27,380 nucleotides of DNA from a virus (lineage: Duplodnaviria > Heunggongvirae > Uroviricota > Caudoviricetes), in the IMG/VR virus record IMGVR_UViG_3300010280_000022; one strand, written 5' to 3'. Within the stretch, counting starts at the first letter, position 1. Each line of letters begins with the position of its first letter. Made by a program: the position numbers and the translations under genes. This document shows, in pieces, positions 2,905-23,127 of the stretch. The notes beneath the pieces are model-generated. The model had not been told where the DNA came from. It did no database searches and saw nothing but the letters and a program-made list of their open reading frames with translations.

Positions 2905-2919
2905 TTACCTTTGCGGTAA
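2905..2919 (+). promoter_or_regulatory. Dyad motif site E: TTACC-TTTGC-GGTAA, nested in a longer inverted repeat
   Basis: Perfect TTACC/GGTAA arms; flanked by AAGTGGAGTGCT (2888-2899) and AGCACTCCTCTT (2928-2939), inverted with one mismatch. Confidence 0.45.
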
Positions 2920-3010
2920 ATTTACATAGCACTCCTCTTGTGCCATAGTAATCGGGCACTGGCAAAATCCAGTGCCGGGATTGGCGTCCCGGATTACTAA
3001 AAGGCGCATT

Positions 3011-3031
3011 CACCGCGCAAGCGGTTTTTTT
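3011..3031 (+). terminator. Rho-independent terminator between the small LexA-controlled gene and the antirepressor gene
   Basis: Stem ACCGC/GCGGT with GCAA loop followed by six T. Confidence 0.6.
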
Positions 3032-3188
3032 ATGCGTATAGCACGGCCACATTCGTATTATGGTGGGCTGTGTGGGGGCACCGAAAGGTGCGCCGGGTCC
3101 TTTTAGCCGGTTACGCCAACCCTGCACAGTTCACCACCAACCGATTGGCGTCGGTAGTGGTGATTAACCAGACTAAAAGGTAACCACT

Positions 3189-3884
3189 ATGACAGCTACA
3201 AAAAGCACGTCCATTTTTTCTTTCGAATCCCAAGCCGATATACGGGTAATCGTCATTAATGGTGAGCCATGGTTTATCGCTTCAGATGTTTGTCGGGCTA
3301 TAGGCATAGCAAACCATCGAGATGCTGTTCGAAAACTTGATGATGATGAGAAGGGCGTCGCTTCAACCGACACCCCTGGCGGTGAGCAAGAATCGATCAT
3401 CATCTCCGAGTCAGGCCTCTACACACTGATCCTCCGCTGCCGCGATGCGGTGACACCAGGCACTATCCCATACCGCTTTCGTAAATGGGTTACAGGTGAG
3501 GTTCTTCCTCAGATCCGCCGCACCGGAAGTTACATTAAAAACTCGCTCACGCAGGAAGAACGCATAAAGATGGTTGCCGACCAGGTAGCCAACGCCACGG
3601 CGTCAGCAGTGATGCAGGCGATGAAGATAGAGAACAAAACCTACAGTGCCCCACTGAAGCCCGGCTACCGCAGCCTGATTCATTCGCCGTCTGGTGTTCT
3701 CGGCCTGACGGAGAACTCACTGCTGATGAATTTGCTGAACCAGTTACAGGAAGACGGGCACGATGTATCGGGCGCGGCGGCGGAACTGACCACCATGTTC
3801 TGCTACATCGTCGGTGTGAGCAAATGCCTGCGTGATATCCAGACTCACGCGGAGTACATCAACGACAAAGCAGGATTCTTCTGA
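3189..3884 (+). CDS. Bro-N family phage antirepressor (231 aa)
   Basis: N-terminal IRVIVINGEPWFIASDVCRAIGI...LDDDEKGV is the Bro-N/antirepressor signature; AAAAGG upstream of ATG; long structured leader. Confidence 0.8.
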   Translation: MTATKSTSIFSFESQADIRVIVINGEPWFIASDVCRAIGIANHRDAVRKLDDDEKGVASTDTPGGEQESIIISESGLYTLILRCRDAVTPGTIPYRFRKWVTGEVLPQIRRTGSYIKNSLTQEERIKMVADQVANATASAVMQAMKIENKTYSAPLKPGYRSLIHSPSGVLGLTENSLLMNLLNQLQEDGHDVSGAAAELTTMFCYIVGVSKCLRDIQTHAEYINDKAGFF

Positions 3885-3973: not shown

Positions 3974-4063
3974 TCCATAGCGATTAGGCACCGATACAGG
4001 AGGAGCCCACATGAGAAAATTTGACGAGTACGAAGGCGTTTAACATTCGGATAGTTTAATGAC

Positions 4064-4084
4064 GGGGCCATTAGGCCCCGTTTT
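4064..4084 (+). terminator. Terminator/attenuator hairpin directly upstream of the membrane-protein gene
   Basis: GGGGCC-ATTA-GGCCCC then GTTTT; ends 18 nt before GTG at 4103. Confidence 0.5.
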
Positions 4085-4102
4085 CATGTCTGGAGACAGT
4101 TT

Positions 4103-4642
4103 GTGTTAAGTGAAGAAATGCAATTTGCCATGGCTGTGGCTCAAATCGTAAGTGCAGTCGCGGTTTCGCTTGGCTTGTTCATAGCTATCGCTACTATTAT
4201 TTATAATGTAAATACAGCGAGAAAAGTACACACTTCAGTATTCCTTGGTGAAAGCAGGTTTGATGTAGATTATAAGAAAGGCCTATCTACTATGCGCCGC
4301 ATTCACGAATCGAACAAATCATTCCGCTCTTATATGTATCCAAGCAATGGGCAGGCTGATCTTACGGATGAAGAAAAGATAGAGAAGAGAGAAATAATTT
4401 ACTGTCTAGGTTTCTACGAACGCATGGCTGTGAGCGTGAAGCGGAAAACTTATGATGAGACCATGATTAAGGAAGTATTTTACAGCTCCGTTGTAAATAA
4501 CTATCAGATTGCGCTACCTCTTATACAAGCTATTAGAGAAAAAGAAAACATAAACACATATTTTAAAGAATATGAATGGTTGGCCACACGATGGAAGGAT
4601 TGTCCATTGAAAGATAAATCCCCGTGGTACAAGTTTTGGTAA
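4103..4642 (+). CDS. AT-rich inner-membrane protein (179 aa; one N-terminal TM helix); candidate superinfection-exclusion/defence moron
   Basis: GTG start with GGAG 6 nt upstream (alternative ATG at 4118); hydrophobic segment FAMAVAQIVSAVAVSLGLFIAIATIIY; AT-rich codon usage unlike the flanking structural genes; strong terminator follows. Confidence 0.7.
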   Translation: MLSEEMQFAMAVAQIVSAVAVSLGLFIAIATIIYNVNTARKVHTSVFLGESRFDVDYKKGLSTMRRIHESNKSFRSYMYPSNGQADLTDEEKIEKREIIYCLGFYERMAVSVKRKTYDETMIKEVFYSSVVNNYQIALPLIQAIREKENINTYFKEYEWLATRWKDCPLKDKSPWYKFW

Positions 4643-4735: not shown

Positions 4736-4897
4736 ATGAAAAAAGCATTTGCTGCACTGTTCGTTTTGTTGTCTCTGGTAGCTTCAACTCAGGCCTTTGC
4801 CGGTCGTTGTCAGCACGACAGCGATACTGCCGCTGACGGCTCCCGCTGCGGTGGGCGTTCTGCGGATTCCCGCCCGGGCGGCGGTGGCATTCGTTAA
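4736..4897 (+). CDS. Small secreted peptide (53 aa; signal peptide plus ~31-aa Gly/Arg/Asp-rich mature part with 2 Cys)
   Basis: MKKAFAALFVLLSLVASTQAFA is a typical Sec signal with AXA site; upstream TTGACG (4695-4700), 16-bp spacer, TATAGA. ORF-track N-terminal extension from 4664 rejected. Confidence 0.5.
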   Translation: MKKAFAALFVLLSLVASTQAFAGRCQHDSDTAADGSRCGGRSADSRPGGGGIR

Positions 4898-4919
4898 AAA
4901 CAAGGCCGCGAAAGCGGCC
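4891..4919 (-). terminator. Terminator at the end of the minus-strand late operon
   Basis: Hairpin GGCCGC-GAAA-GCGGCC (4904-4919); on the minus strand it is followed by TTGTTTTTAACGA. Confidence 0.6.
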
Positions 4920-4933
4920 TGTGACATGTCACA

Positions 4934-5494
4934 CTACATTGATATATGATTCATAAAGTAGCTTAAAGATTTACTTCCCAGAAAAGAAATTTCTTTTCCT
5001 GGATATGTCGCAATAATTGAGCATGACTTATCCCCGTTAGAGGTAACAAATCCTGAATAACCTACTTGTTCTTTACCATTTTGTTGCTTGGCTAAAAAGT
5101 AGAGGTAGCTTATCTTTTTGCCCTCTGGGTAAAACTCTGCCAAACCAGTATCGGTGATTGAATATTTTATTCTCCCGCCTTGAGTAACGTTTTCCATCTC
5201 AAGTTTAGCTATGTCTTTTCTGTTGTATTCAGCATTGATTTTCCTTTCGAAATCAATGTTGTTTTCAAATGAGTAGGAAGCAACAGTCTGAATAGATGGG
5301 AACACGTTTATCTGGATGCCTCCACAGTCGGCACAGGTATAAAGGTATGAATCAGATGGAATCCCCATAAAAGAAAACTGAGTTACCTTAAATTTATCGC
5401 TATCTCCAAAGTATTGAAGTTCGCATTTAACATTTTGCCCTGCAAAAGAAAATGCAGACATCAATATTGAAACAAAAAATATAATTGCCTTCAT
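4934..5494 (-). CDS. AT-rich secreted/periplasmic protein (186 aa), last gene of the late operon; function unknown
   Basis: Signal peptide MKAIIFFVSILMSAFSFA; four Cys; ATG 3 nt after the stop of the upstream 850-aa gene; composition much more AT-rich than the core genes. Confidence 0.7.
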   Translation of the reverse strand: MKAIIFFVSILMSAFSFAGQNVKCELQYFGDSDKFKVTQFSFMGIPSDSYLYTCADCGGIQINVFPSIQTVASYSFENNIDFERKINAEYNRKDIAKLEMENVTQGGRIKYSITDTGLAEFYPEGKKISYLYFLAKQQNGKEQVGYSGFVTSNGDKSCSIIATYPGKEISFLGSKSLSYFMNHISM

Positions 5495-19392: not shown

Positions 19393-19685
19393 TCCTGTTC
19401 ACTGGCCTCTTTGGCCATCTTCAAATACTGTTCAGGGCAATGCGCCATAACGCGCTGAAACAGTTCCAGCGCCAGATTGCGTTGCCCCTCATTAAATGCC
19501 ATTGCCATAGCGTCCATCGGTGAGATAGCGGAAAACACACGGCCTTTCTCCAGCACCGACCAGACAACGCGACGCCCCTGTTCACTGCTCATGACAAAGC
19601 GAATGTCATCAATTTCACGCTGCGCCATGTCACGTTGCTTACGGGCGTTTTCTTCTTTCAGTTGATCGTCTTCGTAATCTGTCAT
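19389..19685 (-). CDS. Hypothetical protein (98 aa) between portal and scaffold
   Basis: ATGA-type overlaps with both neighbours suggest translational coupling. Confidence 0.55.
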   Translation of the reverse strand: MTDYEDDQLKEENARKQRDMAQREIDDIRFVMSSEQGRRVVWSVLEKGRVFSAISPMDAMAMAFNEGQRNLALELFQRVMAHCPEQYLKMAKEASEQE

Positions 19686-21361
19686 TGTGATTGCCCACCC
19701 TGACCACTAACTGCATTCGCCATAGCTGACAAAACACTCGGATCCGAAGTTTTAGCTTCACTTAGCGTCTTGGCACCCTGTGCCGCCGCCATCCCCATCG
19801 CCATCATTTGTTGCTGCTGTTGTTGCTGTGCCCGTTGCTGGCGAGCCTGCTCAACCTGTTCCTGCGGAACAATGACGGTTGGAGACACTCCGGACATATC
19901 AGCGAATGCATCGATCGCCTGATCAACGTTGAGTTTGTCGAGAGCTTCTGGTTTCGCTTGCGCAAGTTGACCAATGAAGTTAACCGTGGACGCCAGACTG
20001 GACAGGCCGATAGACTTCTGCGCCTGAGCCATGACGGAAATGTATTCGACCTTCAGGGGCATGCCTTCCATCGCGTCAGGCGGTGGCGGCAGCATGTTTT
20101 TACGCACCATCATCGAGAAAGCGCGGTCAATGAGAGGATTAAGACATTCGTCGTTCAGACGCTCCAGAACCGGCCCCAACATCAGAAGTTTTTCTTCTTT
20201 CATTTCGATCACCGCTTCAACAGGCATCGAGCGGGTATTGATGTTCTGCAACATCATGAACAGATCGACAAAGTAGGCGCTGTTAATGATTTGACGAGTG
20301 TCCTGAATGTCTGCCACCAGATCTGCTGTACTGGGGTTAACCAGATAAGCAGGCCTGAAGCCATCCTGACCAGTAATCTGATCGATATACGTGATGTCGC
20401 CAGGAAGAAGGGAGGCGCGCTGATTCTTGAGGGAAGTCGGAGCAACCATCGGCGGATTGGTGGCTTTATCAATCAACTGCGACTTGCGCTTCTGGAGAAG
20501 CTGCAATGCCTTAACAGGTCCAAGCGCCAGCATACCCGGGCATGATGATCCATAAACATCTTCGCCGTTAACTTCCCAGCGCGGAGCCATAATTGGAAAC
20601 TCATCAAATCCGGACTCACGCAACAACTTGTCGTTATCGCCACCAACCTCGTAATAAACCGATTTGAATGGCTTGTTCTTGCTATCCAGCTTCGAAGTAT
20701 CGCGGTCAATGTTCGGGTAAACCGAATGCATCACTTCAATCCACTTCTCGTAGGTGCCGCTTTCCCACATGCTTTTTACGGATTCGCTGACGTTATTTAG
20801 CCCGAACTCCTGAACAAGCTGACGAACAGTCATAGAGAACTTGCGAAAACAGGTGTCCACACTGCCACGAGGTGAGTTAGCCAGGTAGTAACTGCCTATC
20901 GGGAATGGCATTGTGCGAATGATGTCCTCGTCATCCTCCAGCACTGCCATTGCACCAGTGCTGTATGTGCCGAGGCTTCCGTATAACTGCGGCAGCGACT
21001 GATAGAGATTCGACTTATTGAACATATCGTTCATGCGGTTCTGCACCGCCTCAAGCCACAACTTAACAGGGCCATAATCCATCATTTCAGGATCTGGCGT
21101 AGCCAGGCGAAACCACGGACGCGCGGGGCTTGTGATGCCTGACATCATGCCACTAGCGAGAGTGCGCGCCGCCATAGTCCCGGTCGAATCAATAATGCGT
21201 GTATTGCGTCGATCGTTACGGTTGACCTCAGAAGTCAGAAAGCGGGAACCACGCGGGTTGATGTAATCACTCAACTCGCGCCAGTGCGGCTCGAACGACT
21301 GACGCTCGCTTTCAAGTTGTGCGAACTGTTTGTTCAATCGCTCTTTAGTTGTTTCCGCCAT
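19682..21361 (-). CDS. Portal (head-to-tail connector) protein, T7 gp8-like (559 aa)
   Basis: Q-rich stretch followed by MMAMGMAAAQGA near the C-terminus and an ERL...P N-terminal pattern recall T7 gp8; GGAG 8 nt upstream. Confidence 0.8.
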   Translation of the reverse strand: MAETTKERLNKQFAQLESERQSFEPHWRELSDYINPRGSRFLTSEVNRNDRRNTRIIDSTGTMAARTLASGMMSGITSPARPWFRLATPDPEMMDYGPVKLWLEAVQNRMNDMFNKSNLYQSLPQLYGSLGTYSTGAMAVLEDDEDIIRTMPFPIGSYYLANSPRGSVDTCFRKFSMTVRQLVQEFGLNNVSESVKSMWESGTYEKWIEVMHSVYPNIDRDTSKLDSKNKPFKSVYYEVGGDNDKLLRESGFDEFPIMAPRWEVNGEDVYGSSCPGMLALGPVKALQLLQKRKSQLIDKATNPPMVAPTSLKNQRASLLPGDITYIDQITGQDGFRPAYLVNPSTADLVADIQDTRQIINSAYFVDLFMMLQNINTRSMPVEAVIEMKEEKLLMLGPVLERLNDECLNPLIDRAFSMMVRKNMLPPPPDAMEGMPLKVEYISVMAQAQKSIGLSSLASTVNFIGQLAQAKPEALDKLNVDQAIDAFADMSGVSPTVIVPQEQVEQARQQRAQQQQQQQMMAMGMAAAQGAKTLSEAKTSDPSVLSAMANAVSGQGGQSQ

Positions 21362-21375
21362 TTCAATGACTCCGG

Positions 21376-21582
21376 TTACTGACCAAGTAGCGTTTTACCG
21401 CTGGTATTAGCGGTTGATGTGTCGCCCTGAGAACCGGTAAGCAGCGTAGAACTACGACCAGCAGCAGCGCGACGGCGACGAGTTTCTTCGTCGCGGGCAT
21501 CAACAACGGCGGCATCCTGCTCCTGTGGTGCTGCCTGAACTTCTGGTGTTGCAGGCACTGATGGTGAGCTACCCATGCACAT
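21376..21582 (-). CDS. Small Ala/Gln/Arg-rich protein (68 aa) upstream of portal
   Basis: Same RBS context GGAGTCATTGA(T/A)ATG as portal; the overlapping 21363..21602 frame looks non-coding. Confidence 0.5.
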   Translation of the reverse strand: MCMGSSPSVPATPEVQAAPQEQDAAVVDARDEETRRRRAAAGRSSTLLTGSQGDTSTANTSGKTLLGQ

Positions 21583-21672
21583 ATCAATGACTCCGTACGC
21601 AATTAAATTATTACCAATTTAACCACATATGATTTATTTATCGTAGACAGTTGACATTTAACGCACGAATTA

Positions 21673-21687
21673 TTACCTTTCAGGTAA
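21673..21687 (+). promoter_or_regulatory. Dyad motif site B: TTACC-TTTCA-GGTAA (perfect inverted repeat)
   Basis: Perfect palindrome 17 bp downstream of a TTGACA hexamer (21651-21656); heads the tRNA/moron insertion. Confidence 0.5.
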
Positions 21688-22009
21688 CCAAAGAGTTCAT
21701 TCCGGTTACTAACCTGACTGGCTTGTCGTTAAATTGAACAGGTGGAGTGAGCTTTTATTTTGATCAGTACGGCGTATGGCACATGCGCCGATAGCGGTCT
21801 GGATACGTTTAAGGGGCACCCTCCCTTGCTCGGGCAAACGAACCAGGTAGCCGGAATGTGCAAGTCGAGCGGTTTTATTCCGCGCACGGGGATTCACCAT
21901 CCCGGCGATTCGGTGTGACGCCTCGGAAGAGACGAGGGTACAACGATGAGAGCATTTATGGAGCCGCGACAAAGTGTGGTGCCTTAACAGGCTAAGTGCT
22001 CTCAGCGTT

Positions 22010-22086
22010 GTGGCATTAGCTCAGTCGGACAGAGCAACCGCCTTCTAAGCGGTTGGTCGCAGGTTCGAATCCTGCATGCCACGCCA
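22010..22086 (+). tRNA. tRNA-Arg (anticodon UCU, reads AGA), phage-type
   Basis: Acceptor stem GTGGCAT/ATGCCAC, D-arm AGCTCAGTCGGACAGAGC, anticodon loop CTTCTAA, T-arm GCAGGTTCGAATCCTGC, discriminator G plus CCA. Confidence 0.85.
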
Positions 22087-22249
22087 GAATCACGCCTAAG
22101 GACCGTGATGCCAGAAGTTCCAGGTGCTTGGCGGTGATGGTTTCCCTTGAAGAACTATCACCGCCCTTTTTACAGCAGGACGCCATTGCGATGACTTCAT
22201 GCTGTAAACCAGTACAGCCACGGAAGGCATAACTCATTGCTTCCAGTTC

Positions 22250-22273
22250 GCCCGGTTCGCCGGGCATTTTTTT
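22250..22273 (+). terminator. Rho-independent terminator downstream of the tRNA
   Basis: GCCCGG-TTCG-CCGGGC followed by ATTTTTTTG. Confidence 0.7.
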
Positions 22274-22289
22274 GCTTGATGACCGCAAA

Positions 22290-22304
22290 TTACCTTAAAG
22301 GTAT
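22290..22304 (+). promoter_or_regulatory. Dyad motif site D: TTACC-TTAAA-GGTAT, abutting TATAAT and the moron ATG
   Basis: ATTACCTTAAAGGTATAATcATG; right arm overlaps an AAGG Shine-Dalgarno-like element 7 nt from ATG at 22309. Confidence 0.45.
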
Positions 22305-22308
22305 AATC

Positions 22309-23127
22309 ATGAAAAACTTCAAGGTAATTAGCATGTTTGAATCGTTTAAAGAGCTGTTTTTATCTACTGCCAATACTGCCGTGAATAGAGCCAAAAACCC
22401 TGTGCTTGGTGCTTTTGTTATGTCCTGGTGCGCCTTCAACTGGAAATCAATTCTTTATCTATTTTTTAGCAAATCAAACATAATAGATAAAATTTCATAT
22501 ATCTCAGATAACAGCACATGGAAAACTGTTATGTTTTATCCATGCTTATCTGTAATTGCTATCTGCTGCCTATTACCATGGGTAAACAATATCATTAACG
22601 TATGGCAAGCAAAGCCTCTTGATAATAATGACTCAATCGAAAATCACCTGAAGGCAAGAAAAATCCAGCGTGAAACAAGACTGCAGAGGTTATTGGCTAA
22701 AAAAGATGTTACATACGACAAAGTTAAGACTGGCGCGGAAAAAGACATCCAAGAGATGAAAGAAGAGATTATTCGATCAAAGAATAGTATGGGGGAATTG
22801 ACTGCCGAGTTGAAAGCTAAAGATGACGAATTGAGATCCGCCAGTGCTCAGTTAGCAGCTCTAAATCATTCATTAAAAGAGATATCGGAAACTCTTGGAA
22901 GAATGAATGAGGCATATAAGACCCTCCAAAATGATTTCGACGAATACAAACTCAAATACCCTGAAAAATCTCAAATAAAAAGCCTTGCACTTGGCAACGG
23001 CCAAACAATTAGCAACTTTTTGGAGCAACACAACTTATCCGGATTAAAATCTGGTAAGCCAAACGTTTTTAATAACTTTGGTGTTCTATCTGGATTATCA
23101 GGTTTCGAGGATAAAAATAAAGACTAA
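22309..23127 (+). CDS. AT-rich moron: membrane-anchored protein with C-terminal coiled coil (272 aa); candidate abortive-infection/superinfection-exclusion factor
   Basis: Two hydrophobic segments (PVLGAFVMSWCAFNW..., VMFYPCLSVIAICCLLPWV) then a long charged heptad-like region; opposite strand and markedly more AT-rich than the flanking terL and portal genes. Confidence 0.7.
   Translation: MKNFKVISMFESFKELFLSTANTAVNRAKNPVLGAFVMSWCAFNWKSILYLFFSKSNIIDKISYISDNSTWKTVMFYPCLSVIAICCLLPWVNNIINVWQAKPLDNNDSIENHLKARKIQRETRLQRLLAKKDVTYDKVKTGAEKDIQEMKEEIIRSKNSMGELTAELKAKDDELRSASAQLAALNHSLKEISETLGRMNEAYKTLQNDFDEYKLKYPEKSQIKSLALGNGQTISNFLEQHNLSGLKSGKPNVFNNFGVLSGLSGFEDKNKD

Follow-up and report, generated by a model that had tools for sequence, protein, structure and literature searches.

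A 27,380-nucleotide (nt) stretch of Caudoviricetes DNA (IMG/VR record IMGVR_UViG_3300010280_000022; hereafter the window) contains, between the portal operon and a tRNA-Arg gene, a region at positions 21603–22009 that combines a promoter and operator with a structured non-coding RNA on the plus strand, and that has no conserved reading frame. Comparison across genomes points to its 177-nt core (21767–21943, plus strand) as a member of a widespread, undescribed, pseudoknotted phage RNA family, more than a local tRNA leader. We think it probable that the region specifies a repressor-controlled structured RNA that is released from the tRNA, that this RNA is the product under selection, and that it binds a component of the host. 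An initial annotation of the window had marked out this stretch as non-coding and dense in hairpins, and had suggested a leader processed with the tRNA, an unannotated small RNA or a regulatory hub; the observation is confirmed, and the interpretation is supported as essentially right.

A covarying, pseudoknotted core

An alignment of 27 diverse cores yielded a covariance model (R1) with 153 matches in the examined loci, at 118–164 bits; the window copy, which is part of the seed alignment, scores 148.7 bits. R1 had no match in four loci that carry the conserved 18-mer by chance, nor in the put region (24000–31000) of phage HK022. Pair statistics were computed on 81 distinct homologues with a hand-built structure of 27 pairs (helices P1, P2, P4 and P5 and a pseudoknot); the core as a whole has five helices and at least one pseudoknot. 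In alignments fitted to the model structure, the proposed pairs form in 97.1% of 2166 cells, versus 26–51% when the partners are slid by 1–3 columns. Double (compensatory) changes occur at 12 of the 27 pairs (222 cells), and the covariation score was reached by none of 500 shuffles.

All helices are given on the plus strand. Helix P1 (21770–21790) pairs CGGCGUAUG with CAUGCGCCG around the loop GCA; its pair 8–20 is GC in 50 homologues and AU in 29, and its pair 6–22 occurs as GU, GC, CG and AU. Helix P2 spans 21798–21847, with closing pairs at 21798–21801/21844–21847 (pair 34–83 is CG in 41 and UA in 38), and encloses a branched insert that varies. A CCUUG loop motif marks this insert, the inner helices of which vary by lineage in length and sequence and keep their complementarity. 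Helix P4 (21889–21903; GGGAU/AUCCC, loop UCACC) shows double changes at three of its five pairs. It is the hairpin CGGGGATTCACCATCCCG (21887–21904) that the initial annotation had picked out, and that hairpin is real: its stem covaries and its loop takes part in the pseudoknot (21895–21915), in which CACC (21895–21898) pairs with GGUG (21912–21915). The covarying pair of the pseudoknot is C-G in 58 homologues, A-U in 19 and broken in none, and near-identical Kosakonia copies (L019 versus L023 and L029) differ at precisely the two pseudoknot positions. Helix P5 (21921–21937; CCUCG/CGAGG), with the conserved loop GAAGAGA, shows double changes at four of five pairs.

Pairwise identity between cores falls to 48% (median 62%), and the cores share invariant or near-invariant blocks: UGGCACAUG, AGCGGUC, GGUAGCCGGAAUGUGCAAG and GGCGAU.CGGUGUGAC. 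The block GGUAGCCGGAAUGUGCAAG (21846–21864, plus strand), unpaired in the model, is 90–100% conserved, even in 53 distinct viral sequences picked by a different pattern. Because the blocks are invariant in two sets chosen with different anchor patterns, they are not an artefact of selection. Two parts of GGUAGCCGGAAUGUGCAAG could base-pair with hairpin loops, AUGUGC with that of P1 (GCACAU) and CAAG with that of P2 (CUUG), which suggests further tertiary pairs, resting on complementarity between positions that do not vary.

Two other foldings were set aside. An RNAalifold consensus pairs the P1 loop with AUGUGC and so breaks hairpin P1, whereas the covariation sits in that local hairpin, which is why the hand-built structure was used in place of the RNAalifold consensus. 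A 12-nt long-range pairing of 21698–21709 (CAUUCCGGUUAC) with 21847–21858 (GUAGCCGGAAUG), seen in the minimum-free-energy fold, is lost in relatives with other 5′ modules; this complementarity could be a lineage-specific alternative pairing.

About 12% of the paired cells in the 81 homologues are G-U. Read from the opposite strand, each of these would become an A-C mismatch, so these pairs fit the plus strand only. The plus-strand fold has a z-score of −4.2, with none of 100 dinucleotide shuffles as good, so the hairpins are denser than chance allows. The minus-strand fold has a z-score of −2.1, with 3 of 100 shuffles as good, and that of the whole predicted transcript is −5.1.

The initial annotation had seen no convincing open reading frame (ORF) here, and had named a conserved coding frame as one finding that would overturn it. 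Such a frame was sought and none was found: whichever strand is read, any given reading frame is open in at most 35% of the 80 distinct homologues, and compensatory pair changes are abundant. ORFs of 24–87 amino acids (aa) can be drawn over the region, and the one candidate named earlier, an 87-aa ORF with a TTG start (21709–21972, minus strand), is present, its product having no Pfam match. Core lengths range from 151 to 183 nt across homologues, with differences that are not multiples of three. Since no frame is conserved and insertions and deletions come in any size, the coding alternative fails. The region thus combines compensatory substitutions on one strand with no conserved reading frame, as structured RNAs do, and no open frame is conserved among homologues, as it would be in a protein-coding gene.

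Distribution in phages of enteric bacteria

The window is a prophage of the phiV10/epsilon15 type (Uetakevirus), 98.8% identical to phiV10 over 21363–22273, and a 245-nt query (21765–22009) is 100% identical to E. coli ML35. The position of the non-coding stretch proved to be as first described, with the minus-strand portal gene (19682–21361; PF12236) and a minus-strand 68-aa ORF (21376–21582) grouped with the head genes on one side and the plus-strand tRNA-Arg on the other.

Conservation in related phages and prophages, which had been put forward as a check, extends far beyond this group, and the core is both deeply conserved and covarying. In distant BLAST searches, 21603–21768 is common to Uetakeviruses only and 21769–22009 is spread further. 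Identity in the core region is 98–100% in phiV10-type phages, about 83% to unannotated DNA of the lambdoid and Shiga-toxin (Stx) phages mEp460, cdtI, 2H10, Ayreon and Stx2c/Stx2a, about 80% in P1, P7, D6 and SJ46, and about 70% in Klebsiella, Salmonella and Enterobacter phages. The element is present in 1840 of 5426 complete E. coli genomes (about a third), where 554 of its places are on plasmids, and in 591 PLSDB plasmids, mostly P1-like. The exact 18-mer occurs in about 12 enteric genera, among them Kosakonia, Citrobacter, Klebsiella, Kluyvera, Phytobacter, Buttiauxella, Pseudescherichia, Enterobacter and Erwinia.

The genomic contexts differ between phage groups. Lambdoid phages carry the element just past cI and on the same strand as that gene; in P1 it takes up the space from tRNA-Ile(CAU) to ban, within the ban operon that C1 controls; and in Klebsiella phage SopranoGao it follows the lysis genes. 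None of the database records inspected annotates the element as an RNA, and a few show short hypothetical coding sequences in its place or over the adjacent tRNA. These include phiV10p04 (L001 3654–3905, antisense to the tRNA), mEp460_037 (L004 2443–2811), Tyrion gp54 (L012 1601–1762) and mEp390_036 (L015 1511–1753), and the coding sequences drawn over the RNA or the adjacent tRNA are probably spurious.

Promoter, operator and transcription unit

The TTGACA hexamer reported earlier is present at 21651–21656 (plus strand), where it can be read directly as a −35 element, and is followed after a 17-nt spacer by a putative −10 element, TACCTT (21674–21679, plus strand). Spacing and sequence are kept in the window, SPN1S, L022, L027, L034 and L037, and we infer a transcription start near 21686–21688. 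Some 30 distinct upstream regions of the Uetakevirus type have TTGACA or TTGACC exactly 16 nt before a dyad of the form TTACC-N5-GGTAA; the spacer sequence and the distance from dyad to core (5–138 nt) are variable.

In the window this dyad is TTACCTTTCAGGTAA (21673–21687), previously listed as dyad site B, and it overlaps the −10 element. Sites of this type with at most one mismatch occur eight times in the window, against 0.43 expected (at 2525, 2905, 3959, 5118, 21673, 22290, 25192 and 25210). They include sites at the promoter of an isrK–C4–antirepressor operon (2905), at the promoter of an accessory gene, or moron (22290), and upstream of the terminase genes (25192 and 25210), and the homologous epsilon15 site carries the annotation ‘repressor, lysogeny’. 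The dyads mark a repressor regulon, to which the structured RNA belongs together with the antirepressor operon, the accessory gene and the promoter region of the terminase genes. The earlier idea of a regulatory hub therefore stands for the 5′ end of the stretch, where promoter and operator lie. This part (21600–21700) is AT-rich, with 29–41% GC, so the description of the whole as GC-rich applies to 21750–22009, and there moderately (53–59%).

Phages of other immunity types have the same arrangement with different sequences. In the Stx2c and mEp390 types, the phage's own operator dyads lie over a TTGACA promoter, tens of nucleotides before the core. In mEp460, operator-like TTGC-N7-GCAA dyads and a promoter-like TTGCAT-17-TATCTT (seen by eye, with a weaker −35, and not called by the promoter scan) follow cI and a terminator.

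The predicted transcript opens with a 5′ hairpin module (21690–21756, plus strand) whose arms (21690–21703 and 21744–21756) are complementary, G-U pairs included, and whose interior carries GUCGUUAAAU. The helix is kept with a different sequence in Tyrion, Klebsiella phage ST512-KPC3phi13.3 and L028, and the same type of module sits after the core in BUCT709, L017 and L023; with moderate confidence, we take the module to be conserved as a helix. At the other end, beyond the tRNA, an intrinsic terminator (22130–22171, plus strand; a 14-base-pair stem, then CUUUUU) is a homologue of the one with which the lambdoid versions end. A second plus-strand terminator at 22250 follows, then the accessory gene (22309–23127) and the convergent terminase genes. 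Across the family, a terminator lies 3′ of the core in 101 of 119 contexts, at a median distance of 234 nt, versus 35 of 141 in the control. These features suggest a discrete RNA gene of about 400–500 nt under repressor control, one whose transcription would be immediate-early in three or more phage groups that are unrelated to each other.

The terminator loop in the window carries UUCCCUUGA, a motif shared with the P2 loop, and in SPN1S TTCCCTTGATGCT is found in both of these loops. Remnants of the core of the epsilon15 type lie in epsilon15 itself (L002 4026–4130) and at L163 6960–7064, and the ‘RNaseIII site’ annotation of epsilon15 overlaps its remnant. The epsilon15 remnant is apparently a deletion between two copies of UUCCCUUGAUGCU, which suggests recombination between the P2-loop and terminator-loop repeats.

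Linkage to tRNA and tRNA-like domains

Between core and tRNA lies helix B (21942–22009, plus strand), an inverted repeat (I1) with arms at 21942–21957 and 21994–22009 and a variable interior, which ends at the base before the tRNA. Its arms covary across at least five sequence versions, and in Stx2a_1447 and SPN1S its interior is swapped for unrelated inserts. The tRNA-Arg (UCU; 22010–22086, plus strand), called by ARAGORN and scoring 73.3 bits with the Rfam tRNA model, has an encoded CCA. It is followed by a 3′ trailer hairpin (22089–22109, plus strand; AUCACG/CGUGAU, loop CCUAAGGAC), which is kept after the tRNA or tRNA-like domain in SPN1S, Klebsiella phage ST512-KPC3phi13.3, L022 and L027. 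If released, the trailer of about 85 nt (22087–22171) would resemble a terminator-ended small RNA (sRNA).

The tRNA is one of several occupants of this place. A tRNA-Arg lies 67–130 nt downstream of the core in about 27 of 141 distinct contexts, a tRNA-Ile(CAU) ends 12 nt upstream of the core in about 15 (the P1 type), and about 80 have a tRNA-like GUUGUGGUGA junction. Most relatives thus carry a tRNA-like domain (GUUGUGG..., GUGGUGA...CACCAC) in the slot held by tRNA-Arg in the window and its close relatives. This domain has an acceptor-like stem (GUGGUGA/UCACCAC) and D-like and T-like hairpins with loops that complement each other (GCUGAU/AUCAGC), and some copies (L017 and L026) have a canonical GGUUCGAnUCC T-arm. 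The core is contiguous with the tRNA and on the same strand in the window, as a tRNA leader would be; the P1 core comes after the tRNA, and the core can therefore not be defined by a leader's role. The RNA does not look like a passive leader specific to this insertion, its 177-nt core being a mobile module common to unrelated phages. Since RNase P matures the 5′ end of every tRNA, its cut would set the window RNA free, with 22009 as the last base.

Other arrangements of these modules also occur. The 3′ end of a tRNA-like domain lies directly upstream of the core at L020 ~4360–4400 (in minus-strand orientation), and L059 has two cores (3994–4155 and 4801–4960) about 650 nt apart; core and tRNA-like modules can evidently be concatenated, as these arrangements indicate. 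In BUCT709 (L014 1631–1750), the 3′ end of the unit is RprA-like, at 50.2 bits (E = 0.0012; gathering score, 70), and includes UUGCUGUGUGUAGUCUU and a terminator. This module may be a phage-borne mimic of RprA attached to the same core.

Comparison with known RNAs

A covariance-model scan against RNA families had been recommended, and we carried it out with Rfam 15 (4227 models, including GOLLD, ROOL, tmRNA, YrlA, AgvB, AsxR, isrK, C4 and RprA). There was no plus-strand match in 21603–22009 at the gathering score or at E values up to 10, and in nine relatives, at E values up to 1, nothing matched the core or the tRNA-like domain. Matches lay elsewhere only: tRNA, isrK, C4, int-alpA and the sub-threshold RprA-like module. 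The core matches no Rfam 15 family, which bears out the suggestion of an unannotated RNA, although the RNA, at about 320 nt, is not small. Searches of the literature, including one for the literal conserved 18-mer, gave no account of this RNA; an earlier paper beyond the searchable library is possible.

Some candidates were considered and rejected. ARAGORN and Rfam were negative for tmRNA and Y RNA. The anti-sRNAs AgvB and AsxR, considered because of a CACAACA-like junction, had no Rfam match. An ERIC repeat was dropped as well: the resemblance lies in one shared 10-mer, GGGGATTCAC, which here forms the covarying P4 hairpin, and no other part of ERIC occurs.

The nearest kind appears to be the tRNA-associated phage RNAs GOLLD and ROOL, and the RNA would be a member of no described family. 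GOLLD and ROOL are encoded by phages and prophages, have many helices and pseudoknots, adjoin tRNA genes, to which they are sometimes covalently linked, and are of unknown function; GOLLD rises during lytic growth, and neither has a known protein partner (PMC12286853). The RNA described here is likewise encoded by phages, prophages and phage-plasmids, with a tRNA or tRNA-like domain adjoining the core in most of the 141 contexts. In contrast, it matches neither Rfam model, its core is 151–183 nt and its unit about 400–500 nt (versus 580–800 nt or more), and it occurs only in phages that infect enteric bacteria, immediately after early promoters under repressor control.

A second comparison is with the put sites of HK022 (putL and putR), which act as antiterminators through RNA alone, without a phage protein, downstream of an early promoter and with terminators following (PMC9378689). 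Our element also lies just past a repressor-controlled early promoter and upstream of terminators, beside the immunity region of lambdoid phages that have no N-type protein at that place. However, put is about 70 nt, with two stem-loops and two copies per phage, whereas this core has five helices and a pseudoknot.

Phage T4 encodes two non-coding RNAs, ‘species 1 and 2’ (rnaC and rnaD), that are co-transcribed with the phage tRNAs and cut from the same precursors by host tRNA-processing enzymes. To our knowledge their function is still unknown, and we know of no report that they are modular or linked to repressor-controlled promoters. They resemble our RNA in the co-processing with tRNA that we propose, but belong to a different phage group, and a search of the phage database with our RNA revealed no sequence relation to the T4 stable RNAs. 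Handles that resemble tRNA are also found at the MALAT1–mascRNA locus, where one forms the 3′ end, in plant viruses, where an upstream pseudoknot domain adjoins a tRNA-like structure, and in tmRNA. The likeness lies in a pseudoknotted RNA joined to a tRNA-shaped domain open to recognition by the tRNA enzymes of the host, where a cut by RNase P would define the 3′ end of the upstream RNA; those examples come from other kingdoms and have other sequences, and here a genuine decoding tRNA can fill the slot.

A proposed role and its alternatives

The role that we propose starts from the observed non-coding nature of the region, its covarying structure on the plus strand, its distribution, its promoter and operator architecture, and its linkage to tRNA or tRNA-like domains. 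On this view the region supplies the promoter and operator of a small ‘RNA operon’ together with its first two thirds. When the repressor leaves the dyad over the −10 element, host sigma-70 RNA polymerase would make a transcript of about 485 nt (~21687–22171), consisting in order of the 5′ hairpin, the 177-nt core, the long helix, tRNA-Arg(UCU), the trailer hairpin and the intrinsic terminator. A cut by RNase P at 22009/22010 would then release a structured RNA of about 320 nt, and this RNA, neither a protein nor the DNA, would be the selected product. Its invariant unpaired blocks, held in a covarying scaffold, may recognize one conserved host macromolecule or ligand, presumably in the first minutes after derepression or infection. 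In three groups of unrelated phages the element comes immediately after an early promoter under repressor control, which points to an early job, and a scaffold with invariant single strands, in an early position and with no phage protein common to its contexts, points to recognition of a host component.

Several considerations weigh against this proposal. TACCTT is a weak −10 element, and the promoter scan skipped this promoter in favour of an overlapping TAGACA-18-AATTAT. Fitting the alignments to the model structure inflates the percentage of paired cells, although double-change counts and slid controls are less affected, and the descent that relates the homologues makes the shuffle statistics overstate significance. 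Finally, epsilon15 is viable with a core reduced to its first ~47 nt, which adjoin the 3′ half of the terminator; the RNA is therefore accessory, and dispensable at least in the laboratory.

A doubtful but serious alternative is a put-like processive antiterminator acting in cis, in which the nascent core would bind its own RNA polymerase and cause read-through of the following terminator or terminators. The genes turned on in this way would be the early-left operon of lambdoid phages that lack N, ban of P1, and, in phages of the phiV10 type, the accessory gene. It would account for an element at the nutL/putL position, tens of nucleotides past the repressor-controlled early promoters of at least four immunity types, with a strong terminator between it and the co-oriented downstream genes in most contexts, and its unpaired, invariant blocks would be apt for binding to a host enzyme that is itself invariant. 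An N-like protein downstream was ruled out in mEp460, where the first downstream protein is acidic and no N homologue is annotated, and put shows that RNA alone can suffice for antitermination (PMC9378689). However, the put region escapes R1, and a 70-nt RNA of two stem-loops differs from a pseudoknotted core of 151–183 nt that each phage carries once, a counterpart of putR being absent. A polymerase that read through in the window would enter the terminase genes antisense, a dead end, and the accessory gene has its own promoter; cleavage by RNase P would detach the RNA, and epsilon15 survives without the core. We regard it as improbable that the core is a new large class of RNA-only antiterminator, or an RNA that reprograms RNA polymerase, recruited by lambdoid and Stx phages, P1 and phiV10-type phages. 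If it were, N-less phages would use the core, transcribed within the first ~200 nt of the early RNA, to read through the following terminator and so time their early genes, including tRNAs and anti-defence genes. Even more speculatively, the RNA could act as a decoy or sponge against host defence, as a Tad2-like gene in the accessory-gene slot of a Klebsiella relative suggests.

It is unlikely that the core is a passive carrier, itself without function, that serves as leader or scaffold in the expression, folding, processing or stability of the attached tRNA-Arg, tRNA-like domain or RprA-like sRNA. With few exceptions a tRNA or tRNA-like domain is joined to the core; in phages of the BUCT709 type the 3′ end is RprA-like, at 50 bits against a gathering score of 70; the last base of helix B is exactly tRNA position −1; and payloads are exchanged while the core stays. 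Yet the P1 core comes after the tRNA and has neither helix B nor any payload, and a leader has no need of 19 invariant unpaired nucleotides and a pseudoknot kept at 48% identity, bacterial tRNAs normally maturing from short, unconserved leaders. Very improbable is a role tied to the late mRNA, whether as a minus-strand element of the terminase-to-head late transcript (for processing by RNase III) or as a plus-strand RNA that acts only by pairing with that transcript. The region does lie between terminase and head genes that are both on the minus strand, and the epsilon15 record marks ‘RNaseIII, mRNA processing’ and IHF sites in the homologous gap on the late-gene strand. The numerous G-U pairs fit the plus strand only, however, the minus-strand fold is matched by 3 of 100 shuffles, the terminators at 22130 and 22250 point only weakly in the minus-strand direction, and the same core is found in lambdoid phages and P1, where a convergent late transcript does not exist. 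Hardly credible, finally, is a protein-coding gene (the 87-aa TTG ORF or a small plus-strand ORF) or a site of recombination or packaging that acts as DNA. ORFs of 24–87 aa and hypothetical coding sequences in several records speak for the former, and module boundaries that match mosaic junctions for the latter; but the frame is unconserved, with insertions and deletions that are not multiples of three and no Pfam match, and neither codons nor DNA sites explain substitutions that are compensatory in helices and asymmetric between strands (G-U).

On the preferred reading, of a released RNA that binds a host component, identification of the partner could reveal a new control of early transcription or of host takeover, or could explain why structured phage RNAs are associated with tRNAs, a puzzle that GOLLD and ROOL pose as well. 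P1, Stx and lambdoid phages are among the most studied systems, yet an RNA of 150–500 nt with riboswitch-grade conservation is unnamed in the sources searched, although it lies at the most regulated place of a temperate phage and is also found in Shiga-toxin prophages. The covariance model could annotate thousands of copies, and P1 offers an immediate genetic test bed.

Neighbouring elements

Elsewhere in the window, 2905–3884 resembles immI of P1: a dyad (2905–2919) at a TTGCAA-17-TATATT promoter is followed by isrK (2956–3031; 77.9 bits) and then by the C4 antisense RNA (3056–3141; 77.7 bits) and a Bro-N antirepressor gene (3189–3884). The C4/isrK pair also lies beside an antirepressor in mEp460 and Stx2a_1447.

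The accessory gene downstream of the RNA unit (22309–23127; 272 aa, phrog_4780) lies in an AT-rich region (22279–23127; 24–42% GC), has its own ATGACC-17-TATAAT promoter overlapped by a dyad, and replaces the 124-aa gene p03 of phiV10. In Klebsiella phage ST512-KPC3phi13.3, the same slot holds the Tad2-like gene (Thoeris anti-defence, PF11195), and from these contents the slot looks like a swap-in hotspot for defence and counter-defence cargo.

In mEp460 (L004 2930–3050), a long inverted repeat (AAAACAGAGAAGAGC ... GTTCTTCTCTGTTTT) lies between the terminator of the RNA and the first early-left gene, and the 3′ side of that terminator, CGCTCTTTTTACAA, resembles boxA.

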